Positions 4,881-49,414 of a stretch of 64,000 bases of DNA are shown here, piece after piece. Both the position numbers and the translations under genes were made by a program. Numbering within the stretch: position 1 is the first letter of the stretch; each line of letters opens with the position of its first letter. Origin of the DNA: Mustelus asterias (Eukaryota); contig NC_135818.1 of assembly GCF_964213995.1 (NCBI RefSeq), positions 79,422,001 through 79,486,000 of the forward strand, written 5' to 3'. The notes below the pieces were generated by a model. The model saw nothing but the letters and a program-made list of their open reading frames with translations, was not told where the DNA came from and ran no database searches.

Positions 4881-5084
4881 AACCTTACTTATGCAATTCA
4901 TATTTAGAGGAAATCCTGTGAAAATCAAGGAATATATTGAAGTAAAATACCTATCGCCATTTTGTGAAAAACATCTTCTGGGTCATGAATCAAACTCAAT
5001 CATTTTGAAGGAAGTTTTCTCCGTTTTTAAAAAGGTGCAGACATGGTTATGTGACTAATCAATTACATATTTTTGGGACCATAC

Positions 5085-5378
5085 ACCTCCTGACTTCCCA
5101 AAGTCTATCCACCATCTACAAGGCACAAGCCAAGATTGTGTGATGGAATACTCCCCACTTGCCTGGATGATTGCAGCTCCAACAACACTCAAGAAGCTCA
5201 ACATCATCCAGGACAAAGTATCCAGTTTGCTTGCCACCACATCCACAGACATCCACTCCCTCCACCACCAAGGTTGAGTAGCAGCAGTGTGTACCATCTA
5301 CAAGATGCACTGCAGCAATCCATCAAAGATCTTCAGACAGCATATTCCAAACCCACAACCACTTCCATCCAGAAGGAA
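5085..5378 (+). mobile_element. LINE 3' fragment (longer paralogue at 27260-27835)
   Basis: Degenerate RT C-terminus (TIYKAQ..SVMEYSPLAWM). Confidence 0.7.
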
Positions 5379-5644
5379 TCTGCTTGGTCCAGCTTATTTC
5401 CCTTAATGGGTTCACTGGATCCAATGGTCAGTGCCTTGAAAAGTCTCCAATCTCCAAACGTTACATTCTCTGTCAACATAAAGAGCATTTTGCTGATTTC
5501 ACTATAAAGATAGACTCTAATTAATGCCACAGCACATTCAAGAGAATTGCACTTAAATGATTTATTTTTAACTAATTTTGCTGTTACCTTGCTAGATTCC
5601 ATGACTTAAGTCGAATAAACATGAGTGGCAAATTTGAGGCAGCA

Positions 5645-5675
5645 TTACCACCTTGTGGTGATAACTTGCACTGCA
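5645..5675 (-). promoter_or_regulatory. Candidate CTCF site with upstream motif (copy A)
   Basis: Minus strand TGCAGTGCAAGTTATCACCACAAGGTGGTAA resembles TGCAG plus the CCASYAGRKGGCA core. Unchanged in copy B. Confidence 0.5.
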
Positions 5676-6169
5676 GCAATCAATTCCTTTTGAGTTTAGA
5701 GTTTTGGAAACGTTATTCAATTGTGTGCCTGGCACAAACAAACCCGCATCACCATGCTGAAAAACTCATAATTGATGATTCAACTTACCCAATATGGAAT
5801 GTGCAATCTTTCTCATATTCCACTTATCAAAGTCCAGAACCTATCAATGCAGATTAAAAGCTTAGGGATCTCCAAGTTGTTGAAACTTAACCAACTAAAA
5901 TTACAACAGATCACTGTTACGCTTACTGTTGGTAGATCAACTAAAACTAAGCTAATCATTAGGCTTATTGTCCTAAAGAGTTATCCAGAGCACAGTAGGA
6001 AGAATTGAGGTTCCCCCCATTCTCTAACAAGTTCTAGTTCCATGAGTCAGCCAGGCCAATTATCAACAGTTCCCACGAATATTGGGATCTACCTGATTTC
6101 AGAATCAAGTAGCAACTCAACCACAGATTCCAGATCAGGTAAGGCACCTTAGAGCCACCTCAACACAAA

Positions 6170-7160
6170 ATCCTACTTACCTCCCGACAGGAGGATCTTC
6201 CTCTTCAGCAGTCACTCAATAATGAGTTTGATTGTCCACCTAAGAAACTCCATGTAACTAGACATGGGTTCAGCGGTACCTTGCATGGCTGATAAGCCCG
6301 ATCCTAGAACCACATCTATGACCACACACTTGGCAGATGTTTCCAGGTGGGTTTGATCATTGGACACTAGATTGCTGGTATTCCTTTCTCAGGCTCCTTT
6401 TCCAGGCCTCCTCTTGCCATCGGGTGTCATTGAAGAATTGTGTCCCTTCAATCAGGAGGTTCCTCCAAGTAGACCTCTACTGAGCAAGGGTCCGCCAGGC
6501 AGTCAAGCCTTCAGGGTGTCTTTGAAGCGCTTCCTTTGTCCTCTTGTTCGGGAGTGTTCTGTGAGCTGGGCACAGAAGATTTGCTTTGACAGTTGGGACT
6601 GTGACATCCTTAACACATGGCTAGCAATGGAGTTGGTTTTGGATGACCATGGCCTCGATCCTGGTGCTTTCAGCTCCTTCAAGGATCCTGATGTTAATAC
6701 ACCTGTCCTCCCAGCTGATGAGGAGAATCTGTCTCAGAATTAAATGTTTACATAAAATAAGCAGTGTATCCACCACTGTTTCTATAATCCCATGGTATCA
6801 TCAATGCCAGCCGTAATTCAGCAATAATACTGTCACCTCTGAGTTAGAAGGTCGCAGACTCAAGCCCTACCCCAGAGACGTGAAAACATAGGCTCAGGTT
6901 TTTGTTCGCAAGTCATATAGCATGAGTCGAGAGATTTTTCAACTCGCCACAAACACCTCTGGAGAAGCTGCCCCATACGAGACAATCTTCCTTTGGATGG
7001 TGGAGAAGGTTACAGGCTGCAGTCAGACTGCCACTCCCCGGACGTGGATCGGAGGTGGCAACAGGGACAACCAACTGCCAATGCAGCCTGTTTGAAAGGC
7101 CTGCCTCAGTTGTGTAGGACTTCATCCCAGTTGTTTACTTATGTTTTCGGCCCAGCAGCC
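6170..7160 (-). mobile_element. RTE-like LINE remnant (paralogue 28950-29900)
   Basis: Minus strand reads ...RTRGQRKRFKDTLKA..., typical of the RTE ORF C-terminus. Confidence 0.65.
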
Positions 7161-8639
7161 CTCACCCTCACACTCCCTCCCCATGTCCCACCCATGCCAA
7201 CTCATGCCCCCTTCCTCCACCACAATGGCACCTCATACCCTCCATATCAATTGTTGATTAAAAAATTCTCTAAAAAATTGCAAGCCTATAAAAGTGTCAA
7301 TCAGAATTTTAAAGTATCAATAGCAGAAGTTATAAGCACTTGATGTCTTTTTATCTCATGCAAATAAACATTAAGCCATTGATAAAAGAGATCACAGAAC
7401 AAAAGCTTATTACCACATAGTAAAGCTGTCAATCTTCTCCTCACCTGCATCAGCAAGAAAGTTAATCCTTTTATGGGAGTCTGGATTTGCCAGGGAGTGC
7501 CGTCTTTATTTAGAATTGTGGCAATAGTATTCAGCAGCAGATTTCTGCAATTCAGTGCAGCTTCCTTTTAAGAGCAGAAGGTTGGTAGAACCATGTACTC
7601 TCTATAACTCTGCATAACACCCTGATGAACATAAAGGCACCCAGCAGTATAGCAGATGCTCAGCCCTACACTAAATCATGTCAATAAGGCGGCAGAATTA
7701 AATCTGTGTGTTGCCTATCTCTACTGGAATTGATGCAATCAGCCCACGAATCACAACTCTCACACCCGAATAACAGCGCAAACAAACTTTAAGCCTCAGA
7801 AGCTTGCAGTCTTTTGATTTCCTTTGATTTAATCAGCTGCTAATCATTTCTCAATAAACTTGCAGTAATTATGTTTTCATCATGATTCCTTCTAATATGA
7901 ACACCATCACAGATTGAGGTGGAATGTATCTTCAGTCAATGTCTAGATTATTAAAGCTGCCCCAGAACAATGTCAACATAGTAATCTAATTTTGGGTTGC
8001 TACAACAGTTGTAAACTTTACAAGGATGGCTTTGACAACTTAGGAAATCAAATAAACTGCTCAGTTCAATTGCTGTCTTGCAATCATTCCCAGGGATCCA
8101 TTATTCTCCATGTTATTATACCCTCATGTGAATCATGATACATATTAACTCTGCAATGAAGGCAATACAAAAGCTTTATGCAAACTTCAATCAGTATCAT
8201 GTCAGTATTACCTTTAACTATCATTAGCTGTGTTCAATTTTACTGAGACTACAAAACCGTTTAATAAAATATCTTCATCATAACCCAATCACAGGTCATT
8301 TCTCTTTTGCCTCAAGTCTATGTTTGTCCAGTTTTTAATTTTCTAAACAATCAGACAGTGCAAACTTTTCCCCATCTCCCACCCGCCTCAATCCCATCCA
8401 CATCTGAGCAGAAACAATATCCCTCAAGAGACACGGCTGCCTGGACTACCCTTCACCAGACACCCAAAAATAAATTCCAATTGTTTAACAAAAATGCAAA
8501 AAATTCACAAACACACTTAAAGGTTTGGCTTCAATACCTTTGCACCACTCAATGCAGCCACCCCCAATTCCACCTCAACTAAATTTCCCCAGTGCTACCA
8601 TAATTCCCAGGACCCACCACCCAATACAGAATTGCAATA

Positions 8640-10200
8640 TACACATGAAACTGTTCAGCTCATTTATATGGAACAAAACGAGAGACCTCACTAAAACTTG
8701 AACAGAGCTAATGATTGCACCTTCTTAGTTCAAAGGGAGGAATGGGGGTGCCGAACATTAAGATCAATTAGCCTCAGATCTTAGATTCATACAAGAGTGG
8801 GTAAGAGGGGACCTCACGTCCATTTGGCTTGATATTGAAGCTGGCCAGTCTGAGTATTCTTTACAAGCTCTGTTGTTTCTTATGGATTTCAAGGCTGTAC
8901 CTGACAAATGTGAGATTCCAATAATGAGCAACGCTCAAGAGCGTAACACTCGAGCGTGGAGGACGGTCCGTAACCGAATGGAAGATTTAATTTGACTTCC
9001 GCTCTCTCTTCCATTCAGGGTAACCCAGATTTCCCACCAAGTCTGATAGACCATCGTTTCAATATTTGGAAGGTTAGGGGCCTCATTCGTTTGGGTGATG
9101 TGTTTAGTGGTGCCTCCTCGTTATCTTTTAAGCAACTGTGTCAACAATATGATATCCCCAAATCCTCTTTTTTCAGATATTTACAATTTAGAGACTTTAT
9201 TCTTAATGACAAATCTCTGCACCTTGATGCTAATGACTCATCGATAGAAGGAATCCTGATATCTACGGAACCAAAGCAATTAATCAGCAAGTTTTATGAC
9301 ACATTATGTTTGAGATACTGTGTGAATAAGTGAGACACTCTGCAATCTTGGGAGTGTGTGAATATTGATTCGGAGACCTGGGACAGTGTCTGGGAAAATG
9401 CCAATAGAATCTGAGTCTGTAATAGAATGAAGGAGACCAAACTTAAAATATTATATATATTACAGCATATTACACCAAGCTGAAGGCATAGGATAGGTCC
9501 TGCAATAGCCTCACTGTGCCAAAAATGCAAAATAATGAAAGGTGACTACACAGATTGTGTCTGGTCCAAAATTAAATCCTACTGGTCAGGCATACTTAGA
9601 GCTTGAGAAGATATTTGATACGTCCTCCAAGTTTGATCCTTTGTATTTGATTCTGGAGCTCCCAGACAAAAAGATAATTGATGCCAATGAGAAAAGGCTG
9701 TGCAATATCCCAATATTCGCAACGCAGAAGAATATCCTTTGCTCCTGGATTAGCGATAAGTGTCCTTCTGCACAGTATTGGCATTAAATTATTATGGAAT
9801 GTATCCCAATGGATTTCCTCACTTGTATACTCCGATCAAAATTGGATGCATTCGGGAACTTTTGGGGCCTCTAAATCAAATATACAGGTTCTATAACGTC
9901 TGACTCCTACAAGGTTTTCTGTAGCCTATGTAGCACTGCCTCTAATATACTATTCACGAGGGTGTGCGCCATTTCACCATGTTTCCCAGGCTTTATCGTC
10001 GTCTTCTCCTCCATTCTGTTACTTCTCTTTTTTGCATATGTCGAAGCGCCGGATATACTGAATATAGTGAACATACTGAACCAACTGTGTTGGTTCCCTC
10101 CTGTCTTTTTCTATATATGGCAAAATGATCAACCAGTTTGAGGGTGTGTTGCATTATTTATAAAAATGGAAAAACTCTAATAAAAATATAATTAAAATAC
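8640..10200 (+). mobile_element. Degenerate L1-clade LINE, 3' half of ORF2 (copy A)
   Basis: SSFIWN, KGG.GVPN, LSFKQLCQQYDIP..FFRYLQFRDF, multiple stops, AATAAA tail. Confidence 0.8.
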
Positions 10201-10868
10201 ATACATGTGAAAGAACTTGCTTCAATAAAATCCATAGCCTCACAAGTCAGATAATTCTCAGCTAATAAGATCAGCTCTTGAATGTATTAGTTATCTATTT
10301 GCTGATATTTTAGATATATCAACATCCACATTATACTGCACCTACCAAACCAGTCTGGCTCAGTGAGGAGCCTCAATGCTTGCTCTTCACATTCCCCTCA
10401 AACCATGAACAAGCAAAGATCTCAATTCCATTTGGATGCACCATGCCTAAGCCTTAGTTGTACCTGTAAATCCTTGATTTACATCATGTTGTGCTATTGC
10501 CTACGAATGCAAATAGAGCAGTTTGTTATGGAAACCGAATAATCCTCACAGTGCTGTTTTAACTAATGTTTGAATGAATCAATTTATTGGACCTTAGTCC
10601 TGCTGCTAACTTTACTTCAAATTAGAATTGAATGTTTGTGGTTGTCATTCTCTATGCCTCAACACAAACACACATAGACAACACAGCAAACAAGGAGAGA
10701 AGATAGCAGACTGTTGTTCCTTACAACACACGTCTTGGGCAGCTAAAACCAACAGCAACTATATTCTTCAAACAGTCTGTGATCTACCATCTGTATGTAA
10801 AACTGTCAGATTATTCCAAGATTGCAGTATTATAATTACACAAGATTTCCAATTGAAAACATACTTAC

Positions 10869-10952
10869 ATTCGTCTAGTCCTAACTGGTAAGCAAGATTC
10901 TGTAGCCCTCGTACCTTCTCCATTAAGTTAGCAGTAGTAAGACTTCCCAACT
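10869..10952 (-). CDS. LIN52: LIN52 copy A exon 5 (ELGSLTTANLMEKVRGLQNLAYQLGLDE)
   Basis: 84 nt, atcag|...|gtaagt, visible in ORF 10768..11004. The terminal exon (SREMTRGK...) was not found in the window. Confidence 0.96.
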
Positions 10953-11799
10953 CTGATAACAAAGGTATTTTATTAGGGCACATTATAGAAGTGATGTCAA
11001 TCATACATCAGGTACGTTCAAAATGATGCGGGTGAAAATACAAATACACAACTTAGCAAATGGCCCAAAGCACAATTGGCCGGGTTCAATTAACACATCT
11101 GGAATTGAAAATTAGTCTCTGTAACGGTGACCATGGGTTTTTCTTTAACGTGCAGGAAATCTGCCTTCCTTACCTGCTGACCTTCATGTGACACCATAGC
11201 CCTCTGAAACGGCCTTGTAAACTACTCGGTTCAGGGCAATTAGGGAGGGGTAACAAATGCTGGCCTTGCCAGAGGCACACACATACCATGAAAGAATAAA
11301 TTAACAAATAACTTTTGAAATTTGCATGACACGCTATTAAAATCTTTTTTTAAAACCATACAAAAATACTCAATTGTTAATTTCCATCTGTTTTTTATTG
11401 TCTTTCAACATAAAACATTCTGAGGTTTTACAAAGCAGAAACAGATGCCTAACAGTCCTGGCAAAATTAAGGCAAAACATGTTTGAACAGAAATGTTATG
11501 CAGGCTTTCAAAACAGGATTTGAGCCATTCATCAAACTTGAATATTTAATAAGAATTGAAAAATAATGGCTAGTTCCTCCACTATCACCTCTCTCATTTC
11601 TTTCCAGGCTTGTGTGCACGTGTGATGATGTGTGCACATTTTATACTTCTGTGTTTATGTATATATTCTGTGTAAGTAAGGGTAAAAGTGTGTGTGTGTG
11701 TGTGTTCAGGGTTAGAGAAAGGAGGTTGAGAGATTGTTGGAGTCAGATTATCTGAGGAATCTAAGGGATGAAAGATTAAAGGTGTTTTTTTTTGCATTT

Positions 11800-14690
11800 G
11801 CAATGAGGACTTGAGGCTTCTCACCCTTTTTTGCAAAGGTCAAGTTCTAAGTTGAGTATTTGTGGAGCGCTGCTGGATGCGGATGTGGATTTTGGAGTGA
11901 CGTGAAGAACAAGAAAGAAGACGGAGAAGTAGACAATCTTTCAGCTCTGCTGCTATTGGTGGATCGTTGTGGTGGTTAAAGCCGCTGACTTGAACCCAAC
12001 GGGTACAGCTCGACTCAATGCAGAGCTACAGCTGCAGCAAGTGCCCGAGCTCCAGGCCAAGGTGCGCTGAACACTGTCAGAGTGATAGTGAAGACGTCAG
12101 GAGAGGACTCGCCCCGTGAAGTGGGAGCTGTTGAATTACTGTGGATTTGAAGTTGCAGGTATCTTTTGCCTGCAAGGTTTCCCCAGTGGTACTTCGACGT
12201 CACCTTCAGAAGTGTTGTGGGATGCACCAAGCTCCTGAAGGCGGTTAGGTAGAAAGGCGACCAAGGGCCCCTATCCATCCTGACCTCAGAGCTTGTTTAT
12301 TCTGCCATAGCAGTGGAACTGGGATGTCACCTTCCACCTACACAATCCCCACATCCATGTGGTGGACATGCTCATGTTAGTCGCCAGGTATGTGGAGCTA
12401 AATGGAAACAGCACTGAAGTCAAAGACTTTGGTATTTGCACCAGCAAACTACAGGTCAAGGTGACCTTGAAGACGGACATGAATGGAGCCATCCTGCGCC
12501 CTCCCTCCAGCTTCACCATTGGAGGAAGTCAAAACCATTTCTTCTATGCAGGGCAGCCGAGAGTGTGATGCACCAGAGGCAAAAATGGACACATTGCTGC
12601 CAACTGCAGCACCATCTTCCGTAGGTTCACCCAAAACAGGTTGCAACGTATGCACAAATAATCAGTGGGGGAGCAACAAAGAAATTTACAAGGGAGACTC
12701 ATGTACAAGAACAAAGACACTAACGCAAAACATGCTGCAAAAGGAGGCAAGGCTCCTGAGCAAATTACAGAAGTTCCAGAAGACACTGACGAAATACCTC
12801 CACCTCTATTGGCAAAGGAAGAATCAAGGGAAGAGGAGTTGGCAGAACAAGAAGGGCCCTGGCTAAAGGTGATCAGCAAAACTCGTCAGCAGAAAACACT
12901 AAAGAAATTAAATGTCGCTATTCTGTTGAACAGTAAAAAGTGGCCATTTTAAGCTAACTCTTCCAATATCGCCTCCACCTAAGATGAGGAATGACAAGTT
13001 GGCAGCCACCAAGAAAATAAGCGGCTAAGCACCAATGCATAATGGGAGCCATAGAATCCCCAGACTACAGGTGATGAAGGCAACAAAAGGCCCTGGGAAC
13101 ACCAACTAACAGTTACAGATGGTGGTCGAACTAGTGGTCCCATGGGCCATCCATCTGGTCAGGAGGAAACGATTGCCGTTTCTCCAGCCTAAAGGTTTTT
13201 CACCCTGAAAGGTGTTCAGAAGGCAAGAGAGAGATAGGGGGAAATGTCCCGACTCCAGAAAAGCATGCAGAATCTGCTCAGGCTACAGTCAACGGGGTTG
13301 ATGCCAAGGAAGATCTCTAAAAGATGAAGAGCCAGCAAACCTCGTACTTTGCCTCGGACACCTCCAAGTTGATCTCGAGCTCCAGCGTCCAGTCTGTGGA
13401 GCAGGCTCGCATTTCTTCTTCTAAAAGGTGCCCAGAGAGACCTCTGTGATCAGCAACCTGAAGGAAGAAGACAGCTCCATAAAGTCATTGCAGTCTGCCA
13501 TTGAGGATCAGCAACTCTTTTTATGCCAGGCTGTCTAACCTGAAGCCAAAAGACAGCACGGCCTCCCAGTCCTCCCTGTCACCAGCACAGGTCGGCACGC
13601 TGACACATGGTTACCATTACTGCCTCACAGTGCCAGGGACCTGGGTTCAACTCCAGCCACGGGTGACTGTCTGTGTGGAATTTGCACATTCTCTCCGTGT
13701 CTGCGTGGGTTTCCTCCGGTGCTCTGGTTTCCTCCCACTGTTCAAAGATGTGCAGGTTGGGTGCATTGGCCACGTTAAATTGCCCTAGTGTCCAAAGGTG
13801 TGTAGGTTAGGTGGCACAGGTCTAGCCCACACCCTGGTCCTGCACTGCAACAGTCACCCGAGCTTTCTTCAAGTTCATCTGGAGATCAAAGATGGATCGT
13901 GTACAAATCTCTGGATGAGGGAGGGAGAAACGTACCTAACGTCGCCCTCATCCAGGTGGCCCCCTTTGTATGGGGCTGCATGAAGCTGTGTGTAAATCCT
14001 TGGTATGCAAACACCAAGTGTCATGACATAATAAGGTTCTAGAGGTTCTGTGTTGCAAAGGATGGGTCTGGCCATGCTGCCGCACAGCGCTCCAAGTAGT
14101 TGGACCGTGCCGTATCACTTCTCCCTCATGGAAAAATTTGTTCAGAAGAATACCTATCACCCCAAATCCATCAAGCAGCGGTCTGCATGTAATCTCCTCA
14201 AGGCCCTGAGGGAAAAGGAGATGGTGGATCACTTTGGATCATTTCCTGAGCAGACTGTTGAGGTTATTTGGTAGAATGCCTCATTGCCAGAACTTTGAAG
14301 CAAGCACTAATCACCTTAGTGGTGAGAAGGACACACCTGTCAAATGGTGTCCGAAGTCTCTGCGCCACCACACCCTGCTCTCAAAGTGGCTGTGAGGGGG
14401 GAAGAAATGGTTGCACGCCTCCTTATGGAGTGTGCCTTTGCAATGAGGGTTTGGAGAGAGATGCAATGGCATTTGTTGAAGTTAATCCAGAGCAGTTTTG
14501 TGATACAGGACTCTGTGCTCTATGGCCTGTTTCCAGGCACGCACAGTGAGACAAATATCAACTGCTGCCGAAGGATCATCAACTCTGTGAAAGACACTCT
14601 TTGATCTGCCCAAAACTTGTTGATCTTTCAAAGATTTGTCCTCGACCGGGTGTTGCAGACTGACATTCCAAGGTCCAGGATTACATGCTA
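11800..14690 (+). mobile_element. Degenerate Tx1-like LINE: ZCCHC3-like ORF1 remnant plus ORF2 3' remnant, with a nested HE1 SINE at ~13590-13815
   Basis: ORF1 fragments NTVRV, YFDVTF, KDFGI, PPSSFTIGG..FFYAGQPRV. ORF2 fragments HLLMEC-like RLLMECAFAMRVW and SVLYGLFPG. Confidence 0.7.
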
Positions 14691-15293
14691 CAGCATCTTT
14701 ACTGGCTTGTTTAATTTCAGTATTAACAGCAGCTGTGATCATAATGCATCTCATCAGGGCTTAACCAACTTGACTTATGCTATTTCAAAAAAGAACAAGA
14801 TTCCTCTTTATGGTTAGATACATCCGTCGTTAGCCTTCCCTCTCAAGTATTTCTATGTTCTGACTCTCTAAAAATTGAAACTAAACACTGAATCTCTCCG
14901 ACATATCGTTCCCTTTCAAATTTTGATTCCCTTCATTAACTGAGTCATCCAACACTCACTTTAACTAAACTTTGCCTTTCCATTTGCTTTTATAATGTTA
15001 TGTTTTAAAAATATTTTCCTCCAGCACTCAATCTTTTTCAGCTCCCTCCTACACTTCCTTATGCTCTTTGTGATCATATGTAGTGTTTCTTAGCCCTAAT
15101 TTTACCACATGCCTTCCTTGTAACGTGTTCTATGCTGTTCTAGGGTTCAGAAAGGTGTTAGATAAATGGAAGTCATTCCTTTTCATAGCTCCCACTTATA
15201 GCACCATGCATTAGTACTCCGGGGCCCTGGTCCACTAAACCACCCTAGGTTGAATGGCAGTTCATTAATGCAGAGATTAAGCACAGTCAATAC

Positions 15294-15360
15294 CTTTAAG
15301 CATGTCAATATCATCCTTCTCAAGTTCTGCCATCCATTTGGGTGGAGAGCTGGTAATAGG
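15294..15360 (-). CDS. LIN52: LIN52 copy A exon 4 (PITSSPPKWMAELEKDDIDMLK)
   Basis: 67 nt, ttgtag|...|gtattg, near-identical to the recalled vertebrate LIN52 sequence. Confidence 0.96.
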
Positions 15361-15619
15361 CTACAAAACAAAAATGGAAATTTGCCTTAATTTGTTAAAG
15401 TACCTCACAATTGATGCTTTACTGACTGAATTTTGCATTTTGCTTCTAGAAAAAGAGTTTGCGGGAGTGGGTGAATTAACACTGCACTTTCACTTTTGTG
15501 ATTGATACTACTCACTGGGATAGTTGGATAAGAACCATCTCACTGGACATATCACTAGAAAAATCATAGAAGGAAAGGGGATGAAAGCTGCGTTAGCCTA
15601 TTCAATATGAACTAAGGAT

Positions 15620-16600
15620 TGATTAATGGATAGGGAGCAGACAATCAGCCTAAACTAATTTAACAAGGCACCAGAAGGATCAGTGCTAAAGCCTCAGATA
15701 CTTACAATCTATATCAATGGCTTAGATGAGGAGGCTGAGTAAAATGTATCTAAGTTTGCAGATGACACAAAGTTAGGCAGGAAAGTAAGCTGTGAGGAGG
15801 ATGCAAAGAGGTCTCCGAGGAACATAAACTGATTGAGTGGACAAGAGTGTGGAAGATGGAAAATAAAGTAGAGAAATGTAAAGTTATCCATTTGGTAGGG
15901 AGGATAGAAAATTAGAATTATTGTTTTAAATGGTGAGAGACGAGTAACAATTGGAATTCAGAAGGACCTGTGACCTCGTACACGAATCACAGAATGTTAA
16001 CATGCACGTAAGCAGGCAATCAGGAAGGAAAGAAATTCAGAAAGCAAACAGTGTGTTAGCTTTTAGTACAATGGGATCGCGGTAGGAGAGTAAATAAATA
16101 TGGCTACAATTGGACAGGACATTGGTGAGACCAAACATAGAAACTCTGTACAGTTTTGTCTCCTTTCCTAAGGAGGGATATATTTGCCTTAGAGTGAGTG
16201 CAATGAAGGTTCCCAAGACCATGAGGAAACAATCGGGTGGATGGAGCTATTACAAGGGGGCATAACTATAGGGTTCGTGGTGGGAGATACAGGAAGGATA
16301 TCAGAGGTAGGTTCTTTCCTCAGAGTGGTTGGGGTGTGGAATGGACTGCCTGCAGTGATAGTGGAGTCAGACACTTTAGGAACATTTAAGCGGTTATTGG
16401 ATAGGCACATGGAGCACACCAGGATGATAGGGAGTGGGATAGCTTGATCTTGGTTTCAGATAAAGCTCGGCACAACATTGTGGGCCGAAGGGCCTGTTCT
16501 GTGCTGTACTGTTCTATGTTCTAATGAGTAGTCCAAGTCTTTATTTCATAGAGCTTAGAAGAATGAGGTGAGCTCATTGAAATATATACAATTATTGAGG
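15620..16600 (+). mobile_element. Old CR1 remnant with a younger copy-A-specific CR1 3' end (~16230-16523)
   Basis: SKFADDTK-like sequence at ~15750. The younger insert ends in (ttcta)n and is absent at paralogous ~37380. Confidence 0.75.
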
Positions 16601-16722: not shown

Positions 16723-16760
16723 ACTTTTGAAAGATGCTGCAAATTCCGCTACCCCTGGCA
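16723..16760 (-). CDS. LIN52: LIN52 copy A exon 3 (MPGVAEFAASFKS)
   Basis: 38 nt, tttcag|...|gtaagt, in frame with exons 2 and 4. Confidence 0.95.
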
Positions 16761-17414
16761 CTGAAAGAGACAATGAGATTGGGTGATTTTTTTTATATCA
16801 CTGTGAGACGTGTCAGCGTTGAAGAACAAAATAGTGTTTCACTTTGGAGATTCCCAAGGCAGATATAGCACAGGATAAAGGCAGAAAATCTCTATTTGCT
16901 CTGGCCTAATGTTGTGCCCCAGTATTTGGACACCCCTTCAGTGCTGGTGTGAATTTTCCCAATGTCTCATACCAATTCTCACCTCAGAATTAAGCCACCA
17001 AATTCGGTTCAGCTTCACATACTAGGAACTGAGTTTGGATCTCACAAATGTATTTCACATTGGACTCTTGCAACCAGCTCAGACAGGAGGTTTCTATCAT
17101 CAAGTCTTGGCTCAAATTCCAGTACAAGAATATATTAATCTATTCCACCTCTTTATGGAACTATATTTGACAACAATACACTTAAAAGAGAATTCATCTC
17201 AGTCACCTCCTATATTGTTGATATGGCAATATTCCAGCTCATAGGAACCTTACATTTCTATCAACTTTTATACAGTCCTATTGTAATTTGGAGCAAGTTA
17301 ATAAACATCTTTTAATAGTGTGCACTGTTCAACCCATGCAATTACCTGTGACTTTACAGCCCCATAATGCTGCTGTGGAATGCGACCACTCTGTGCCACC
17401 CAATCTATTTATAT

Positions 17415-17968: not shown

Positions 17969-18043
17969 TTTGTTCTGGCCATAAATCTGGTGAAGCTCGA
18001 TCTAGTTTCTCAAAGCTCAGCAAAGACTGCTCCAAATGTGCAC
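17969..18043 (-). CDS. LIN52: LIN52 copy A exon 2 (GAHLEQSLLSFEKLDRASPDLWPEQ)
   Basis: 75 nt, cag|...|gtaag. Encodes the LxSxExL pocket-protein motif and the RASP DYRK1A site (human S28). Confidence 0.96.
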
Positions 18044-33723: not shown

Positions 33724-34673
33724 CTGATAACAAAGGTATTCAAAGGCATTTTATTAGGGCACATTATAGAAGTGATGTCAATCATACATCAGGTATGTTC
33801 AAAATGATGTGGGTGAAAATATAAATACACAACTTAGCAAATGGCCCAAAGCACAATTTTGCGGTGGGGGGGTTGGCCATAGTGGTGGCAATGTCACTGG
33901 ATCATTAATCCACAAGCCCAGGCTAATGCTCTAGGACACGAGTTCAAATTCCTCCATCTCAGCTGGTGGAATTTAAATTCAATTAATACATCTGGAATTG
34001 AAAATTAGTCTCCATAATGGTGACCATGAAACTATCAACTGGGTTTTCCTTTAACGTGCAGAAAATCTGCCTTCCTTACCTGCTGACCTTCATGTGACAC
34101 CACAGCCCTCTGAAACGGCCTTGTAAACCACTTGGTTAGGGAGAGGTAACAAATGCTGGCCTTGCCAGAGGCACCCACATACCATGAAAGAATAAATTAA
34201 CAAATAACTTCTGAAATTTGCATGACACGTTATTAAAATCTTTTTTTAAAACCATACAAAAATACTCAATTATTAATTTCCACCTGTTTTTTATTGTCTT
34301 TCAACATAAAACATTGAGGTTTTACAAAGCAGAAACAGACGTCGAAGTTCTGGCAAAATTAAGGCAAAACTGTTTGAACAGAAATGTTATGCAGGCTTTC
34401 AAAACAGGATTTGAGCCATTCATCAAACTTGAATATTTAATAAGAATTGAAAAATAATGGCTAGTTCCTCCACTATCACCTCTCTCATTTCTTTCCAGCT
34501 TTGTGTGCACGTGTGATGATATGTCCACATTTTATACTTCTGTGTTTATGTATATATTCTGTGTAAGTAAGGGTAAAAGCGTGTGTGTGTGTGTTCAGGG
34601 TTAGAGAAAGGAGAGGTTAAGAGATTATTGGGAGGCAGATTACCTATGGAATCTAAGGGATGAAAGCTTAAAC

Positions 34674-35630: not shown

Positions 35631-36446
35631 GTTATCTTTTTGCATTTGTAATAAGGACTTAAGGCTTCTCGCCGTTTTTTGCAAAGGTCAAGTGTAAGTT
35701 CCGAGTTGAGTTTTCATGGAGCGCTGTTGGATGCTGATGTGGATTTCGGAGTGACATGAAGGACAAGAAAGAAGACGGAGAAGTAGACAATCTTTGAGCT
35801 CTGCTGCTATTGGTGGATCTTCATGGTGGTTAAAGCCGCTGACTTGAACCCAACGGGTACAGCTCGACTCAATGTTTGAGCTACGGCTGCAGGAAGTGCC
35901 CGAACTCCAGGCCAAGGTGTGCTGAACACTGTCAGAGTGATGGTGAAGACGTCAGGAGAGGACTCGCCCCATGGACCGGATCTACTTCGTGAAGTGGGAG
36001 TTGTTTGCTGTGGATTTGAAGTTGCAGAAATCTTTTGCCTGAATATCTCCGCCATATCTTTCCCTTTCAAATTTCGATTGCCTTCATTAACTCAGTCATC
36101 TAACACTCACTTTAACTAAACTTTGCCTTTCCATTTGCTTTTATAGTATCTGTTACGTTTTTAAAATATTTTCTTTTCTAGCACTCAATCTTTTTCAGCT
36201 CCCTCCTACACTTCCTTATGTTCTTTGTGATTATATATAGTGTTCTTTGTCCTAATTTTGCCACATGCCTTCCTTGTAATGTGTTCTATATTCTAAAGTT
36301 CTGAAAGGTGTTAGATAAATGGAAGTCATTCCTTTTCATAGCTCCCACTTATAGCACCATACATTAGTACTCCGGGGCCCTGGTCCAATAAACTACCCGA
36401 GGTTGAATGGCAGTTCATTAATGCAGAGATTAAGCACAGTCAATAC

Positions 36447-36513
36447 CTTTAAGCATGTCAATATCATCCTTCTCAAGTTCTGCCATCCATTTGGGTGGAG
36501 AGCTGGTAATAGG
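36447..36513 (-). CDS. LIN52: LIN52 duplicate copy B exon 4
   Basis: 67 nt, identical to copy A, splice sites intact. Confidence 0.85.
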
Positions 36514-38212: not shown

Positions 38213-38250
38213 ACTTTTGAAAGATGCTGCAAATTCCGCTACCCCTGGCA
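38213..38250 (-). CDS. LIN52: LIN52 duplicate copy B exon 3
   Basis: 38 nt, identical to copy A, splice sites intact. Confidence 0.85.
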
Positions 38251-39389
38251 CTGAAAGAGACAATGAGATTGGGTGATTTTTTTTTATGTCACTGAGAAGT
38301 GTCAGTGTTGAAGAACAAAATAGTGTTTCACTTTGAAGACTCCCAAGGCAGATATAGCACAGGATAAAGGCAGAAAATCACTGTCTCTCTGTCTGTCTCT
38401 CTTTGCTCTGGCCTAATGTTGTGCTGTGGAGATGCCGGCGTTGGACTTACATTAACCTTACATTTCTATCAACCTTTATACAGCCCTATTGTAATTTGGA
38501 GCAAATTAACAAACATCTTTTAATACAGTGTGCACTGTTCAACCCATGCAATTACCTGTGACTTTTCAGCCCCATAGTGCAGCTGTGGAATGTGACCACT
38601 CTGTGCCACCCAATCTATTTCATGTTGTGCCCCAGTATTTGGACACCCTTCAGTGCTGGTGTGAATTTTCCCAATGTCTCATACCAATTCTCGCCTCAGA
38701 ATTAAGTCACCAAATTCGGTTCAGCTTCATACACTAGGAACTGAGTTTGGATCTCACATATGGATTTCACATTGGACTCTTGCAACCAGCTCAGACAGGA
38801 GGTTTCTATCATCAACAGTCTTGGCTCAAATCCCAGTACAAGAATATTAACCTATTCCACCTCTTTATGGAACTATATTTGACGACAATACATTTTATAT
38901 ACTGAGTTAATCTTAGTCACCTTCTTTATTGTTGAAATAGCAATATTCCAGCTCATAGGAACCTTACATTTCTATCAACCTTTATACAGCCCTATTGTAA
39001 TTTGGAGCAAATTAACAAACATCTTTTAATAGTGTGCACTGTTCAACCCATGCAATTGCCTGTGACTTTTCAGCCCCATAGTGCAGCTGTGGAATGCGAC
39101 CACTCTGTGCCACCCAATCTATTTCATGTATTATCCTGTGGGATGCAATTTACACACCGCGGGCTCCCCTGTGGCATGCACTGTTCAGATCACTCCATAG
39201 ATGATGCACTATTTGCATCATATAGTGGTCGTACAAGATCCTTTCTTAATCCACATGGGGTTCCTGTGTGGTGCATTGTAGGTTCCATTCCTTTCAACAC
39301 TGATTGCTCAGTTTGAGCTACCCATTTTGTTTTTAAATCGATAAGCATCAGTTGTATTCTATGGGTAAATCATCAAAGAAATATCTTAC

Positions 39390-39464
39390 TTTGTTCTGGC
39401 CATAAATCTGGTGAAGCTCGATCTAGTTTCTCAAAGCTCAGCAAAGACTGCTCCAAATGTGCAC
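39390..39464 (-). CDS. LIN52: LIN52 duplicate copy B exon 2
   Basis: 75 nt, identical to copy A, splice sites intact. Confidence 0.85.
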
Positions 39465-40847: not shown

Positions 40848-42512
40848 ACGTTTGTCGTATGAAGAGAGATTTAACAGTTTAGGCCTATACTCTCTGGAAT
40901 TTAGAAGAATGAGGGGAGATCAAATTGAAGTATTCAAGATGATAAAACATATGGATAAAGTGGAGCGGATACTTCCTCTTGTGGGGCATTCTAGGATGAG
41001 AGGTCATAGTCTTAGGATAAGGGGTAGCAAATTTAAAACAGAGTTGAGGAGAAGCTACTTCTCCCAAAGGGTTACAAAGAACAGTACAGCACAGGAAACA
41101 GGCCCTTCGGCCCTCCAAGCCTGTGCCGCTCCTTGGTCCAACTAGACCAATCGTTTGTATCCCTCCATTCCCAGGCTGCTCATGTGACTATCCAGGTAAG
41201 TCTTAAACGATGTCAGCGTGCCTGCCTCCACCACCCTACTTGGCAGCGCATTCCAGGCTCCCACCACCCTCTGTGTAAAAAACGTCCCTCTGATGTCTGA
41301 GTTATACTTCGCCCCTCTCAGCTTGAGCCCGTAACCCCTCGTGATCGTCACCTCCGACCTGGGAAAAAGCTTCCCACTGTTCACCCTATCTATACCCTTC
41401 ATAATCTTGTATACCTCTATTAGATCTCCCCTCATTCTCCGTCTTTCCAAGGAGAATAACCCCAGTCTACCCAATCTCTCCTCATAGCTAAGACCCTCCA
41501 TACCAGGCAACATCCTGGTAAACCTTCTCTGCACTCTCTCCAATGCCTCCACGTCCTTCTGGTAGTGCGGCGACCAGAACTGGACGCAGTACTCCAAATG
41601 TGGCCTAACCAGCGTTCTATACAGCTGCATCATCAGACTCCAGCTTTTATACTCTATACCCCGTCCTATAAAGGCAAGCATACCATATGCCTTCTTCACC
41701 ACCTTCTCCACCTGTGTTGCCACCTTCAAGGATTTGTGGACTTGCACACCTAGGTCCCTCTGTGTTTCTATACTCCTGATGACTCTGCCATTTATTGTAT
41801 AACTCCTCCCTACATTATTTCTTCCAAAATGCATCACTTCGCATTTATCCAGATTAAACTCCATCTGCCACCTCTCCGCCCAATTTTCCAGCCTATCTAT
41901 ATCCTGCTGTATTGCCCGACAATGCTCTTCGCTATCCGCAATTCCAGCCATCTTCGTGTCATCCGCAAACTTGCTGATTACACCAGTTACACCTTCTTCC
42001 AAATCATTTATATATATCACAAATAGCAGAGGTCCCAGTACAGAGCCCTGCGGAACACCACTGGTCACAGACCTCCAGCCGGAAAAAGACCCTTCGACCA
42101 CTACCCTCTGTCTCCTATGGCCAAGCCAGTTCTCCACCCATCTAGCCACTTCTCCTTGTATCCCATGAGCCTTAACCTTCTTAACCAACCTGCCATGTGG
42201 GACTTTGTCAAATGCCTCACTGAAATCCATATAGACGACATCCACGGCCCTTCCTTCATCAACCGTTTTTGTCACTTCCTCAAAAAAAGGGTTGTCAATC
42301 TGTGAAATTTGCTACCCCAAAGTGCGGTGGATGCTGGGACAGAGAGTAAATTTAAGGAGGGGTTAGACAGATTTTTAATTGGTAATGGGTTGAAGGGTTA
42401 TGGGGAGAAGGCAGGAAAATGGGGATGAGGAGCACATCAGCCATGATCAAATGGTGGAGCAGACTGGATGGGCTGAATGGCCTAATTCTGCTCCTATATC
42501 TTAGGAACTTAT
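40848..42512 (+). mobile_element. CR1 3' fragment, interrupted by the 41074-42285 insertion
   Basis: SYEERFNSLGLYSLEFRRMRGD...FSQRV resumes after 42293. Confidence 0.8.
41074..42285 (-). mobile_element. Young 5'-truncated CR1 LINE with an open 377-aa ORF2 RT C-terminus
   Basis: GVPQGSVLGP and FADD motifs, no stops. TSD AAAGGGTT at 41066-41073 and 42286-42293. Confidence 0.93.
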
Positions 42513-43575: not shown

Positions 43576-43594
43576 CCGCACTCGGCGACGCCAT
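43576..43594 (-). CDS. LIN52: LIN52 duplicate copy B exon 1
   Basis: Identical to copy A exon 1, with intact ATG and GT donor. Confidence 0.8.
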
Positions 43595-44249
43595 CTTCCC
43601 AGCACCGTCACATGACCCAGCGGCAACCAAACACCAGCGACATGATTAATGCTTTTTTCCCCAGGGAGACCGGCCTTCCCGATTTTAGAGGCGATGTTGA
43701 CAGGAAAGCCTAACAATAATTTAAAAAATACACGCTGACGCCAAAACGTCGTCTTTTTGTCAAGTCGGCCGACGGTTAGGCGCTCGGGTCTCGCGCGAGA
43801 TCGCTCGCGCAAGGGGGGGGGGAAGAGAGGATTTGATGGACGTGGCAGTCGACCAATTGGAATCCGCACGTGGTGCAGGAACGACGAAATCGGCTTCGGA
43901 TAGTGGAAAGGGGGGCGGGTGGGAGATTTGATGGACGCATCGACCGACCAATCGGGAGGGCGGAAGGTGTTCCCGAGTGACGCAGGAGGCATCCATTCAG
44001 CTTCGAGGTCGGGAGGAAAGGGGCGGGACTGTGGAGGGGAATTGATGGACGTGGCGGCAGACCAATCGAACGTGTGGTTGGCTGGACACGTAACGCAGGA
44101 AGTCCAATCAGCTGGGAGATGGGGGGAAAGGGGCGGGCCCCGAATGGGGTGGGCGGGGCTGAGTGGGAGCCAGCGGCGTCCAAGTGGAGCTGGCGGGTCA
44201 CCTGGCAGGAGCTGGTGTGTTAGTCGGCAGGCGGGTTATCGGCTTTGCA
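43595..44249. promoter_or_regulatory. Bidirectional LIN52/ALDH6A1 CpG-island promoter, copy B
   Basis: Same architecture with four CCAAT boxes and TCTCGCGCGAGA at 43789-43800. Confidence 0.85.
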
Positions 44250-44285
44250 ATGGCAGCCATCCTCAGGACGACTTTAAGGCACAAG
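44250..44285 (+). CDS. ALDH6A1: ALDH6A1 exon 1 (start of mitochondrial transit peptide, MAAILRTTLRHK)
   Basis: gcaATGG Kozak context, Arg-rich peptide without acidic residues, phase-0 GT donor, head-to-head with LIN52 as in other vertebrates. Confidence 0.85.
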
Positions 44286-45296
44286 GTAAACCGGGTAGGA
44301 GCGATGAAATAGGAGGGAGGAAAATATAAAATAAAGATCTTGTGTGTGTGGTTTTTTTAAAAACTCCTCAGTACAGAATGTTCCAGGGCCTCACACTGGT
44401 CGAGCTGGTCTCTCTCGCAGTCAGTTCGCACAACAGTTTATATATAGAAACCTATGTGTATTTTTTTTAAATTCACGGCGCATCTTATTAAATTGTTTGC
44501 AGATTTTCAATTTGGCTAATGGGAAGTGTTATTTGATCAGCAATAATTTTTCCCCCATCATTTTTCACCCTTCCCCCCCTCAGCCAAACTTGTTTCTATT
44601 TATATAATCAGAGGTCGTTTTATTTCACTCCAAGTTGTCTTTTTCTGCAGTTTTGAGTCCATTTGTTTGTTGCTCCTCTTTATTTCCTCCCCTCCTTTGC
44701 CCTCCACAAGGGATCAGGTCGCCATTTGTTTGTGGGCAGAGTTTCTAAACGTATCACAGATACATGGAAACTGCAGGTCCCTGTTCCCAGTGATTATACT
44801 TTGTTGTTTTTGCCCCCATGTCCTTATCAGAATATTAATTGCAGTTGATTTGCACTTGCCAGCTGCTTAGGCGAAATAAGGCCTCAGTGGCTGTACAGTA
44901 TTGTGATTGTGGCATGTTGCATGCTGAGGCTGGGGATTTACCCCAAAACTTGAGATTGTAAGATGTCAGAGCTAATTTTCTTTATTCGAAGCTTCCTAGT
45001 TTTAATGAGCATGCCCAACAGTGCGGTTTAATGCCTCTCTTTTAAACTTTGTTCTTCCTGCAGTTTATACTTGGATTGTCTGAAAGAAAAGTAGAAAATT
45101 GTTGCTGTCTTTTGCACAGTCTGCAAGCCTGTAGGTCAGATTTAGTGGGCGGCTTCCAGATCTCCCTAGTTATTGGTTCAGTCGTGTTGGGGAGGGTTGT
45201 CCTTGGTTCTCTGTTATACAGCATTTTTTTCCTTGCTAATCTCGTCCTCTGGGAATTTGTGGCATAGATTCAGGATTCACACACCCGCATCCAAAT

Positions 45297-46341
45297 TTGA
45301 TTTATTATTGTCACGTGTTAGTATACAGTGAAAAGTATTGTTTCTTGCGTGCTATGCAGACGAAGCATACTGTTCATAGAGAAGGAAAAGAGAGAGTGCA
45401 GAATGTAGTGTTATAGTCACAGCTAGGGTGGAGAGAAAGATTAACTTAGCGTGAGGTAGGTCCATTCAAAAGTCTAATGGCAGCAGGGAAGAAGCTGTTC
45501 TTGAGTTGGTTGGCATGTGACCTCAGACTTCTGTATCGTTTTCCCAGCGGAAGAAGGTGGAAGAGAGAATGTCCGGGTTGCATGGGGGGGGGTCCTTAAT
45601 AATGCTGGCTGCTTTTCCGAGGTAGCGGGAAGTATAGACAGAGTAAATGGATGGGAAGCTGGTTGCTGGAAACTCTCAGCAGATCTGACAGTATCTGTGG
45701 AGAGAATAGAATCAATGTTTCAAGTCTGGGTGACCTTTTGTCAGAGCCCAGCATTGTGACTAACCCTGAAATATGCTAGCCAGCCATTCAGTTCAAAGGC
45801 AATTGGTAATGGGCAAAACATCCTGGTCTTGCTAGTGATGCCCACATTCCATTAAAGAATAACAAAAAAGCTTTACTGAGGTTCTGCAGGAGCTTTCCCA
45901 CCAGAGAAGTTTACTTTTTAATGCTAAATTACTGCATTTGTAAGCAACTTTTAAAATAGATTCAAATATAAAAAAGATATTCTTTCTACTTGGCTCTGCT
46001 TGCCATCTCTCTGGCTTGTGCCTTCCTAACCCATCCACAGACCGCCTCCTCCCACTTGCTGACTGTTCCGCTCAACAACTCCTCCCCAAAACCATTACTG
46101 TGAACAAGGGCTCAGCTCGAGGTAGGAAGCAACCTACGGAGTGAGAGCTTTGTGTATCTTCAATTTTCCACAAAATCAATTTTAATTTCCCAGGTGCCGC
46201 TCCTGGACACCTAAAAACCTCGACCATTTCTGCTTCGTCCCCATCGATGTAGACAGAGGCATGTTCTCCACTACGTTTTCTGAAGTCAACGACTGTCTCC
46301 TTCATATTGTTGACATTGAGGGAGAGATTATTGTTGTCACA
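45297..46341 (-). mobile_element. Rex1-like LINE insertion carrying an internal copy of local sequence
   Basis: LINE at 45297-45663 and 46203-46341, TSD CCAAAT. Empty site catccaaatgttgcaag at ~23202. Confidence 0.8.
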
Positions 46342-48334
46342 CCAAATGTTGCAAGTGAAAGACGCTTTAAGTTTTTTTTAGGTTGTAAGATTCTGTCAGT
46401 TTGCTTTTAAATGGTCATCTTACCATAGTGATCAGCCTCAACAGATCTTATTTTTCCACACATCGGTCTTGTGGTTTCCTCTTCAATTGCTGTAGGAGCC
46501 TCCCATTTTGAATTTAAAGTTGCCGAACTTCATAGTTCTCTTTCTTTCTCTTGGTCATATCTCCTCTAAACTTCCTTCAAGTCACCACTTTCAGCAAGCT
46601 CTCATGCCTTAGAACATAGTCAACTTGGTGCCACTTATTGATGATATTCACTAAAGACCTTTCTTCCACCACCATCCTGAGGACTTCTTTGTTCCTCCTC
46701 TTCTCTCAGCTAACCCGCCACATCCTTCTCCAGAACAAATTTCACAACTTTTTTGTCTTTTGATGTCTGCCATTTTGAAGGTCCGTGCTTCAGCTCTGTG
46801 CACCTCAAGAAACTCCAAATCTACCTTAACACTTCACAAGAGCTCTATTCATTCCTGTTCTGAGTAATATTTTGTTCAGCAATTGCTTTTTTTTGCCATT
46901 GGTATGATAGCTCTGATTTCTTCATAACAGTAACCATCTTCTGGCATTATGCTTCCCAGGTACTTGGATGTGATAAAAGCAAAATACTGCAGATGCTGGA
47001 ATCTGAAACAGAAAATGCTGGAAAATCTCAGCAGGTCTGACAGCATCTGTGGAGAGAATAGTCAACATTTCGAGTCTGGATGACCCTTTGTCAGAGCCCG
47101 TCATTGTAACTAACTCTGAAATATGCTAGCCAGCCATTCAGTTCAAAGACAATTAGTAATGGGCAAAACATCCTGGTCTTGCTAGTGATGCCCACATTCC
47201 ATTAAAGAATAACAAAAAAGCTTTACTGAGGTTCTGCAGGAGCTTTCCCACCAGAGAAGTTTACTTTTTAATTGCTAAATTATGTATTTGTTAACTTTTA
47301 AAATAGATTCAAATATAAAAAAGATATTCTCTTTCTACTTGGCTCTGCTTGCCATCTCTCTGGCTTGTGCCAATGTGCTTCCTAACCCATCCACAGACCG
47401 CCTCCTCCCACTTGTTAACTGTTCCACTCAACTACGACTCCCCTAAATCATTACTGTGAACAAGGGCTCAGCTCGAGGTAGGAAGCAGCCTGCAGAGAGA
47501 GAGCTTCGTATATCTTCAATTTTCCACAAAATCAACTTTAATTTCCCAGGTGCCTCTCCTGCAAAGGTCGCCTTGCTTTTATTCTTTAACCTTCTAATCT
47601 TTATCTGTATCCTTAAGTTGATTCTATTTTCGTTCTTCCTGTGACGCACCTGTTTTGCCATTGCTACTGTTAGGGGAGGTGGCAGCGTTGTAGTATTGTT
47701 ACTGGATGAGTAATCCAGAGACCCAGGGTAACGCTCTGGGGACTCAGGTTTCAATCCCATCACAGCAGATACCTGTAATTTTAAAAACCTGGAATTAAAA
47801 GTCTAATGTTGATCATGAAACCGTTGTCGATTGTTGTAAAACTCCATCCGGTTCACTCGTGTCTTTTAGGGAAGGAAATCTCGTGCTTGCCGGGTCTGGC
47901 CTATACGTGACTCTGGACCCACAGCAATTTGGTTTGACCCTTAACTGCCCTCTGAAATGGCTTAAGCTACTCAGTTCAAGGGCAATTCGGGAAGGACAAC
48001 AAATATTGGTCCAGCCACTGTTGCCTGCTCCAAATGAATAAGAAAAAAGAGGCTCTGCCCCTTTTTGAAGATGTGAATTTTCAATTTCATGCGAGTGGAA
48101 CCTTTGTGACTTGAACTGAGACGGAGCAAACTGTAAAAATGCATGAGGCCATATTCTAAAGTGGAGGTGAGAAACCAACAGATTGCACCTGGGAGTGTGA
48201 AGAGAGAGACATTTCCTACAAACCAGACACCAATTAACACTCATGGAAGAAACATTACAAGTGCAAAGTACTAGATCTTGAAACAATGGCTGGCACAGAC
48301 AGGCATACCCCAGACCTCTGGGCATTTTAAAATA

Positions 48335-48608
48335 TGATGTGGAGATGCTGGCGTTGGACTGGGGTAAGCACAGTAAAAAGTCCCACAACACCAGGTTAAA
48401 GTCCAACAGGTTTATTTGACAGCACTAGCTTTCAAAGCCTCAAGCTTCCTCTTCAGGTGAGTGAGGACTTGTGTTCACAAACAGGGCATATAAAGACACA
48501 AACTCAATTTATAAGATAATACCATTTTAAAATAGTAAGTCTCACAACAGCAGGTCTTGTGAGACTTCTTACTGTGCTTACCCCAGTCCAACGCCGGCAT
48601 CTCTACAT
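48335..48608. mobile_element. Two adjacent Penelope-like insertions in opposite orientation
   Basis: Three copies of CATTTTAAAATA (48323, 48523, 48609) delimit two fragments. Confidence 0.75.
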
Positions 48609-49414
48609 CATTTTAAAATAACCAGTCACTGGAAAGAGATTGCAAGTGACACATACGGTTTCAAGAAAGTCTTTGGCAGATGAATCAAGCTCTATAATTT
48701 CTCCCTTTCTCACTCTCTCTTTGAGTGAATGTGTTGCCCAGTTTGGGAAGCCAATTCCACCAGGCACCTACCAGCAAACCGAGATCTTGTAATAATTGCA
48801 AAATCTGACCGTTCAAGAAACCAGCTAACTTAAATCTGCTGCAGAGTTTAAAATCTATGCCTTCCGGACAATCAAATAACACTTAACAAAATAAACTTAA
48901 AAGACTGAGGAGATTGAATAGAGGGGAGCCAGTCCATCCTTCCTCGCCTGGTCATAACACTACATTGTAGTTATCTACTGCTCCAGCTTAGCATTCAAAT
49001 ATTTTCCCATGTGTGAATTATGCATGCATATGTTCTTTCTAGGCACTAACCCCGTTATCCTCCTCACCCATCCCATTTGCCAGCCACTTGTTTGCATCTC
49101 AAATTTTCAGAAACGTGTGATGAACAATTTTGCATGCTGCCTTTTATGGTTTCATGGTTGTCCTTGAATAAGTGTCTTTTAAAAGCTTCTATAATTTGTC
49201 CCCATATAGCTAATCCCCTCTAATGTTGTTGCCAACTAATCTTTTCTTATCCCAACCAAAGTTCCCAACAACTTCAGTTTCTTTATATTTGTTTCAGGTT
49301 TGCTGACTGACTCTGGCTTGTTTTCTCCAGGTCATTCACACTACCTCAAAGGTGTCTGCAGTCCAATTCTGATCCTTTACACATCTGGGATTTTAGTTGC
49401 ACTAAGATAGTCAC

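Follow-up and report, generated by a model that had tools for sequence, protein, structure and literature searches.

In catarrhine primates, a tandem duplication with one end in an intron of BRCA1 and the other in an intron of NBR1 copied the bidirectional promoter that the two genes share, and, in the portions of the published accounts available to us, one duplicate is described as driving BRCA1 together with the long noncoding RNA (lncRNA) NBR2, the other as driving NBR1 together with the pseudogene BRCA1P1, and mouse as having one copy (10.1101/2025.11.08.687349, PMC1382208, 10.1101/2025.03.11.642677, PMC8674783). Here we describe a comparable arrangement at the LIN52/ALDH6A1 locus of the shark Mustelus asterias, contained in a window of 64,000 nucleotides (NCBI RefSeq assembly GCF_964213995.1, contig NC_135818.1, positions 79,422,001 to 79,486,000 of the forward strand), in which a unit of about 22 kb with the shared promoter at its core is present twice. 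This gene pair, which joins a subunit of a cell-cycle complex (LIN52) to a mitochondrial enzyme (ALDH6A1), lies head to head in human as well, and the accession numbers of the two genes are adjacent in two other elasmobranchs, which shows neighbourhood only. The state that we favour, with a probability of roughly 0.6, is one of two live two-way promoters, A and B, whose inner gene copies, those lying between them, are still transcribed and partly homogenised. As far as the primate accounts go, this architecture is already known at BRCA1/NBR1 and the shark locus is another case of a duplicated bidirectional promoter; no paper on a shark LIN52/ALDH6A1 duplication was found in the literature searched, a body of text that leaves most subscription papers outside its coverage.

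Self-BLAST and two alignments place the two copies, A and B, in a direct tandem repeat with a short junction segment between them (Table 1). The self-BLAST chain pairs 5084-26645 with 27305-49015 in direct orientation at an offset of 21-24 kb, its main block (5444-11077 against 28197-33858) matching at 92% with E=0, and a short match pushes the copy starts out to 5053 and 27197. Both copies carry LIN52 exons 1-5 on the minus strand, the promoter and ALDH6A1 exon 1 on the plus strand, and the ends of the duplication fall within LIN52 intron 5 and ALDH6A1 intron 1, one intron per gene. An initial annotation, made from the letters of this stretch, had claimed just such a repeated unit with all ATGs and AG/GT splice sites intact, ALDH6A1 exons 2-9 to the right of copy B only and the last LIN52 exon missing from both copies; self-BLAST, both alignments and exon mapping bear out this description, and no last LIN52 exon was found anywhere in the window. 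The junction segment has no homologue elsewhere in the window and matches neither flank. Recombination between flanking repeats, considered as the breakpoint mechanism, is not supported, as the right end lacks a third copy of the repeat and the junction resembles neither flank.

Over sixteen hand-chosen collinear blocks comprising 14,915 aligned bases, 915 substitutions separate the copies (6.1%; Kimura two-parameter distance, K2P, 0.064), and an independent global alignment gives the same divergence profile. Copy-specific sequence of at least 40 bases occurs at 18 sites, as 10 segments in A and 13 in B, in addition to 158 smaller insertions or deletions (indels). The rival to a genomic duplication is an assembly artefact in which two haplotypes of one locus were laid in tandem, and two alleles would likewise show conserved exons and diverged introns. 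However, the available parts of the shark literature give 71.8 single-nucleotide polymorphisms (SNPs) per 10 kb (0.72%) and 2.0 structural variants per 100 kb between two school sharks (PMC13434710) and, for the epaulette shark, a nucleotide diversity of pi=0.002 (PMC10587355). The copies here stand at 6.1% substitutions and have about 80 sites with large indels per 100 kb, in a comparison that takes two other sharks as its yardstick in place of M. asterias's own heterozygosity. Likewise, false assembly duplications are described, in the portion of the source consulted, as reaching about 1.5-1.8 times the background heterozygosity and as mostly gap-separated (PMC9516828), whereas there is no N between the copies, nor in the window as a whole, and the junction segment resembles neither flank. 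The heterotype class of false duplication in that source resembles this locus in its neighbouring partial gene copies with conserved exons and differs from it in that no gap is present here and that the divergence exceeds the above shark values by a factor of about 8 to 30.

Because the divergence, together with the large indels, goes far beyond shark allelic variation, a false haplotype duplication appears unlikely. We reject the artefact, to which we give very little credence, on the divergence and the missing gap only, since the contrast between exons and introns also fits alleles. The combination of 6.1% divergence, 18 large indel sites and no gap upholds the earlier view of an old and real duplication. 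The copy-specific insertions of transposable elements (TEs) on which the initial annotation had leaned survive in part: 19 of the 23 copy-specific segments of at least 40 bases resemble other sequence in the window, but not every segment is a TE insertion, since some reflect sequence lost from the other copy and others arose by local duplication. We assign no date beyond "old" because the available rate of 7e-10 per generation, taken from the part of PMC10587355 at our disposal, converts the K2P of 0.064 into an implausible 46 million generations.

Each copy of the promoter has a CpG island and separates head-to-head starts that are less than 1 kb apart. Of the CpG sites that occur in at least one copy, 54 of 71 within the island are common to both, versus 95 of 252 outside it (Fisher p=9e-9), and CpG losses within the island are not asymmetric between the copies (6 versus 3, p=0.51). 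Both promoters retain three units of about 100 bases with motifs that we take to be CCAAT and GC boxes; the gene-proximal promoter ends are near-identical between A and B, and the middle has drifted. On this evidence neither half of either promoter has decayed, and both promoters look alive and unmethylated. The three tandem units, about 95-114 bases each at 21551-21860 in A and 43834-44140 in B, are the most diverged part of the promoter, and their structure, judged by its sequence, is an older internal triplication. Promoter A alone carries a 20-base minisatellite at 21852-21938, with 4.3 perfect copies, which adds GC boxes beside its ALDH6A1 start, that is, on the side of its inner direction.

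The sequence shows that an old tandem segmental duplication, reaching from LIN52 intron 5 to ALDH6A1 intron 1, doubled the 5' exons of both genes together with all of the bidirectional promoter between them. The outer direction of promoter B leads into an uninterrupted ALDH6A1, as can be followed through exons 1-9, and the outer direction of promoter A probably into an uninterrupted LIN52 whose exon 6 would lie outside the window. Both promoters appear to have escaped methylation and, like those at BRCA1/NBR1, are most likely still active in both directions, so the inner directions probably still give RNA: ALDH6A1 exon 1A may serve as an alternative first exon or give a short terminated RNA, and a transcript of LIN52 exons 1-5B may either stop early or continue by splicing into copy A or to exon 6. 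The pattern of differences suggests that the copies have stayed similar through occasional gene conversion and a degree of purifying selection on the inner exons of LIN52.

The initial annotation had further taken promoter A to be collinear with a complete LIN52 and promoter B with a complete ALDH6A1. The second part holds through exons 1-9, whose translation is identical at 397 of 397 residues to P0130 (XP_078090485.1, XP_078090486.1; 524 residues), with 12-37 differences over 370 residues in ten other named shark and ray ALDH6A1 proteins; identity to named ALDH6A1 or methylmalonate-semialdehyde dehydrogenase orthologues also supports the gene assignment. That P0130 has two accession numbers was considered as a sign of two first exons and dismissed as unspecific, as P0122 and P0129 also have two. 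The first part remains an expectation for LIN52: a search with C-terminal tails from named LIN52 proteins of sharks and rays (20 proteins, of which 19 were used and one had no tail after exon 5) returned no convincing minus-strand match downstream of exon 5 in the window, either for exon 6 or for a conserved alternative last exon, and the best tail matches were discarded as lying on repeats or on the wrong strand. Many named shark and ray LIN52 isoforms carry unrelated tails after exon 5 (P0175, P0196, P0207, P0224, P0271, P0328-P0334), so annotated forms that lack the customary last exon are frequent.

The geometry does not support the further proposal of a partition into one promoter per gene. 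Promoter B reads left through LIN52 exons 1-5B and then across copy A toward exon 6, and promoter A reads right through copy B to ALDH6A1 exon 2; because B crosses A and A crosses B, both whole genes are in line with either promoter. If exon 1A of ALDH6A1 were spliced to exon 2, it would yield the same protein as exon 1B. Together with the absence of decay in any promoter half and the conservation of the inner exons, this counts against a strict partition, and the alternative of two alternative promoters per gene, also raised at the outset, is compatible with the geometry. Uncoupling of LIN52 from ALDH6A1 is a possible consequence of the duplication.

The six duplicated coding exons differ between the copies at only 2 of 319 bases, whereas size-matched windows drawn at random from the non-exonic alignment have a mean of 20 (p=0.0003). 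Under a null in which one copy was released from constraint, modelled with thinned windows, 8.5-12.6 differences are expected, and four variants of this null give p=0.004 (all six exons), 0.010 and 0.027 (LIN52, two thinning factors) and 0.041 (without exon 4); a Poisson test based on the local flank rate gives p=0.016. Runs of 153, 97 and 93 identical bases are centred on LIN52 exons 1, 2 and 3, respectively. At the same time, divergence is over-dispersed along the copies (71 windows, variance 46 versus 12 expected), and the near-identical tract adjoining LIN52 exon 4 (Table 1) is probably a gene-conversion tract. The over-dispersion, this tract and the small number of synonymous differences make gene conversion between the copies likely, and we regard the evidence for selection on copy B as moderate.

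Several points weigh against inner copies that are transcribed and maintained. Synonymous differences are few as well (1 versus 4.3 expected, p=0.07), and exon identity may thus reflect conversion and not selection at the protein level. ALDH6A1 exon 1 taken alone is not significantly conserved (0 versus 1.4 expected, p=0.25), and the single amino-acid change in copy B, at an invariant Asn, fits relaxed constraint. AATAAA hexamers in the sense orientation number 6 in ALDH6A1 intron 1 of copy A versus 2 in B, four of them unshared in A and none in B; by comparison, 44286-64000, which covers the native ALDH6A1, holds 6 sense versus 24 antisense hexamers. The LIN52 transcript from promoter B would meet 12 minus-strand AATAAA within the 5.1 kb before promoter A, and the two LIN52 bodies have equal counts (12 and 12). 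As a weak hint, these counts suggest that both inner units terminate early. Finally, transcription from promoters A and B is itself deduced from their sequence and the BRCA1/NBR1 precedent.

One rival reading is a clean partition, in which promoter A serves LIN52 only, promoter B serves ALDH6A1 only, and the dead inner exons look intact through gene conversion and slow shark evolution alone. The conversion-like tracts, the Asn-to-Lys change and the four-to-none excess of unshared AATAAA, small as these numbers are, agree with it, and inner transcripts that converge over about 21.5 kb should favour silencing. Nevertheless, neither promoter half shows asymmetric decay, the identity runs sit on exons 1-3 with an excess that persists when exon 4 is removed, and the available accounts have both primate BRCA1/NBR1 duplicates remaining bidirectional. 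We therefore consider a clean partition unlikely, though it deserves some weight, and continue to favour two live two-way promoters.

The inner LIN52 copy comprises 94 of about 112 codons in open frame, and its exons are free of stops and frameshifts and keep intact splice sites. Pfam LIN52 (PF10044) matches exons 2 and 5 of both copies at 27-31 bits versus a cut-off of 22, in a scan of these two exons. LIN52 is an extremely conserved protein, and because all 203 named LIN52 sequences compared have Asn at the site of the Asn-to-Lys change in exon 5B (203 of 236 ids, with 33 unnamed or fragmentary rows excluded, and many isoforms that are not independent), the Lys of copy B is, on this comparison, derived. 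In a whale-shark LIN52 structure prediction of low confidence (mean pLDDT, predicted local distance difference test, 58.7), there is a hint that this Asn sits in the first turn of a helix spanning 68-84 and that the exon 6 part has a helix at 95-102. A second residue of note lies in exon 2 (18038 and 39459 region), where both copies encode His; among the 203 named sequences, 162 of the 162 matched have Asp, 41 were unmatched by the pattern and none has His, which points to a change specific to this lineage, either older than the duplication or passed between the copies by conversion.

A further possibility is that the inner LIN52 copy is selected and translated, such that promoter A gives the normal protein and promoter B a distinct one, either doubled or truncated before the last 18 residues. 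The reading frame stays open and in phase when exon 5B is joined to exon 2A or 3A, the last duplicated donor fitting the first internal acceptor and the 5B-2A join remaining open for 182 codons, whereas joins to exon 4A or 5A meet a stop. Exons 1-5B followed by 2-5A and the 18 last residues of other sharks would thus make a doubled LIN52 of about 200 residues. Binding regions of LIN52 are described, in the parts of the sources available, as a p107-binding peptide and a solved LIN9/B-Myb-binding piece (10.1101/788265, PMC9424243); the former lies in exon 2 and the latter (6C48 chain B) in exons 4-6. An early-ending B transcript would accordingly lack the end of the Myb-binding region, because the LIN9/B-Myb piece spans exons 4-6. 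If this possibility were true, a doubled protein of exons 1-5B, 2-5A and 6 would carry two p107/p130-binding motifs, a truncated one would keep pocket-protein binding with an incomplete LIN9/B-Myb-binding region, and the assembly of DREAM versus Myb-MuvB would be altered; the duplication would then have given a shark lineage promoters that can be tuned separately and, in addition, a novel isoform of a DREAM/MuvB subunit. The conserved inner exons and splice sites are in line with this idea. By contrast, no doubled form occurs among the best 120 of 454 matches (67-216 residues), and neither repeated motifs nor a Lys at the invariant site is found in any of the 203 named sequences, both sets being without the M. 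asterias LIN52 records, which did not turn up in 15 LIN52 clusters either; in addition, a B transcript must pass the 12 minus-strand AATAAA hexamers and an active promoter before it reaches exon 2A. We consider a distinct copy-B LIN52 speculative and improbable, somewhat more so than a clean partition, and retain two live two-way promoters as the favoured state.

Copy-specific and repeated sequence is distributed across the unit and beyond it. LIN52 intron 1B holds a B-only reverse-transcriptase frame at 41142-42311 (388 residues, no stop, Pfam RVT_1 E=5e-23), which by these features is a fairly young fragment of a long interspersed nuclear element (LINE). Other B-only sequence includes 1051 bases at 45291-46341, in which LINE-like pieces surround a 91% copy of 47016-47561, and a 206-base local duplication at 38416-38621 that is 97.7% like 38960-39129. 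In LIN52 intron 4, a GC-rich B-only segment of 964 bases with a small CpG island (34673-35636) and an A-only segment of 2715 bases (12173-14887) resemble other parts of the window weakly or not at all. A search for target-site duplications was too crude to rely on. To the left of copy A, broken integrase-like frames at 772-1328, with weak Pfam matches below cut-off, mark a remnant of a long terminal repeat (LTR) element. An Rfam scan of the window gave 0 matches, and 0 tRNAs were found.

Table 1. Coordinates of the duplicated unit, its promoters and the exons of LIN52 and ALDH6A1 within the window
Feature	Position	Strand	Remark
Copy A	5053-26645		part of LIN52 intron 5, promoter, part of ALDH6A1 intron 1
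Junction segment	26646-27196		551 bases, 36% GC, no N
Copy B	27197-49015		second copy of the tandem duplication
Promoter A	21326-22023		698 bases ATG to ATG; CpG island, 61 CpG, observed/expected 0.97
Promoter B	43595-44249		655 bases ATG to ATG; CpG island, 55 CpG, observed/expected 1.02
LIN52 exon 1 coding, copy A	21307-21325	-	19 nt, ATG at 21325
LIN52 exon 2, copy A	17969-18043	-	75 nt; phase 1 acceptor, in frame with exon 5B donor
LIN52 exon 3, copy A	16724-16761	-	38 nt
LIN52 exon 4, copy A	15294-15360	-	67 nt
LIN52 exon 5, copy A	10869-10952	-	84 nt; Asn at invariant site
LIN52 exon 1 coding, copy B (inner)	43576-43594	-	identical to A
LIN52 exon 2, copy B	39390-39464	-	identical to A; one T-to-A in acceptor pyrimidine tract
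LIN52 exon 3, copy B	38214-38251	-	identical to A
LIN52 exon 4, copy B	36447-36513	-	identical to A
LIN52 exon 5, copy B	33640-33723	-	synonymous difference at 33677; Asn-to-Lys at 33698
Intronic tract near-identical between copies	15381-16119		9 differences in 739 aligned bases (1.2%)
ALDH6A1 exon 1 coding, copy A (inner)	22024-22059	+	36/36 identical to B, GT donor intact
ALDH6A1 exon 1 coding, copy B	44250-44285	+	36 coding bases
ALDH6A1 exons 2-9, single copy	53833-61846	+	identity to named orthologues
ALDH6A1 exons 2-5	53833-53874, 55480-55554, 56199-56360, 56994-57072	+	
ALDH6A1 exons 6-9	58491-58793, 59603-59724, 60787-60976, 61665-61846	+	

Here nature has repeated the promoter duplication of BRCA1/NBR1 independently, in a distant lineage and with a different gene pair. 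The 6% of copy-specific variants, among them the LIN52 exon 5 bases at 10906/33677 and 10927/33698 and an ALDH6A1 5' UTR variant at about 21997/44223, make every read assignable, in principle, to a promoter and a direction, so this locus can test whether promoter duplication uncouples two genes or simply doubles them. With five of its six exons present in a conserved second copy, LIN52 may also give an altered MuvB subunit, and short-read annotation can mis-assign exons here.

Three described systems frame these findings. In intragenic partial tandem duplications, such as the MLL partial tandem duplication (MLL-PTD), the last donor of an exon block is in frame with an earlier acceptor. The LIN52 block shares this property through its exon 5B donor and exon 2A acceptor and differs in that it brings its own promoter, so an unduplicated mRNA is still possible from promoter A. 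A looser parallel is the split of nurf-1 in Caenorhabditis, where, according to the part of the report available, duplication of a shared middle segment parted two functions with neither gene copied whole; there, however, the segment comprises exons shared by two isoforms on one strand and not a promoter between genes, and it evolved faster, whereas that of the shark is nearly unchanged (PMC6752949). The closest likeness is to BRCA1/NBR2/BRCA1P1/NBR1, as far as the accounts available to us describe it (10.1101/2025.11.08.687349, PMC1382208, PMC8674783): both loci involve a head-to-head gene pair, which at BRCA1/NBR1 shares a single promoter in other mammals, and a direct tandem duplication with ends in introns, and at both loci each of the two promoters is flanked by a complete gene on one side and a partial 5' copy on the other, the completeness of LIN52 being presumed in the shark. 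The primate unit is about 4.4 kb with 32 kb between the copies, and the shark unit about 22 kb with 551 bases between them. Whereas both primate duplicates are bidirectional, in the shark this is suggested indirectly by the kept CpG islands and motifs, and whereas the primate inner copies became a lncRNA and a pseudogene, the inner LIN52 of the shark keeps its 94 codons open with one amino-acid change.

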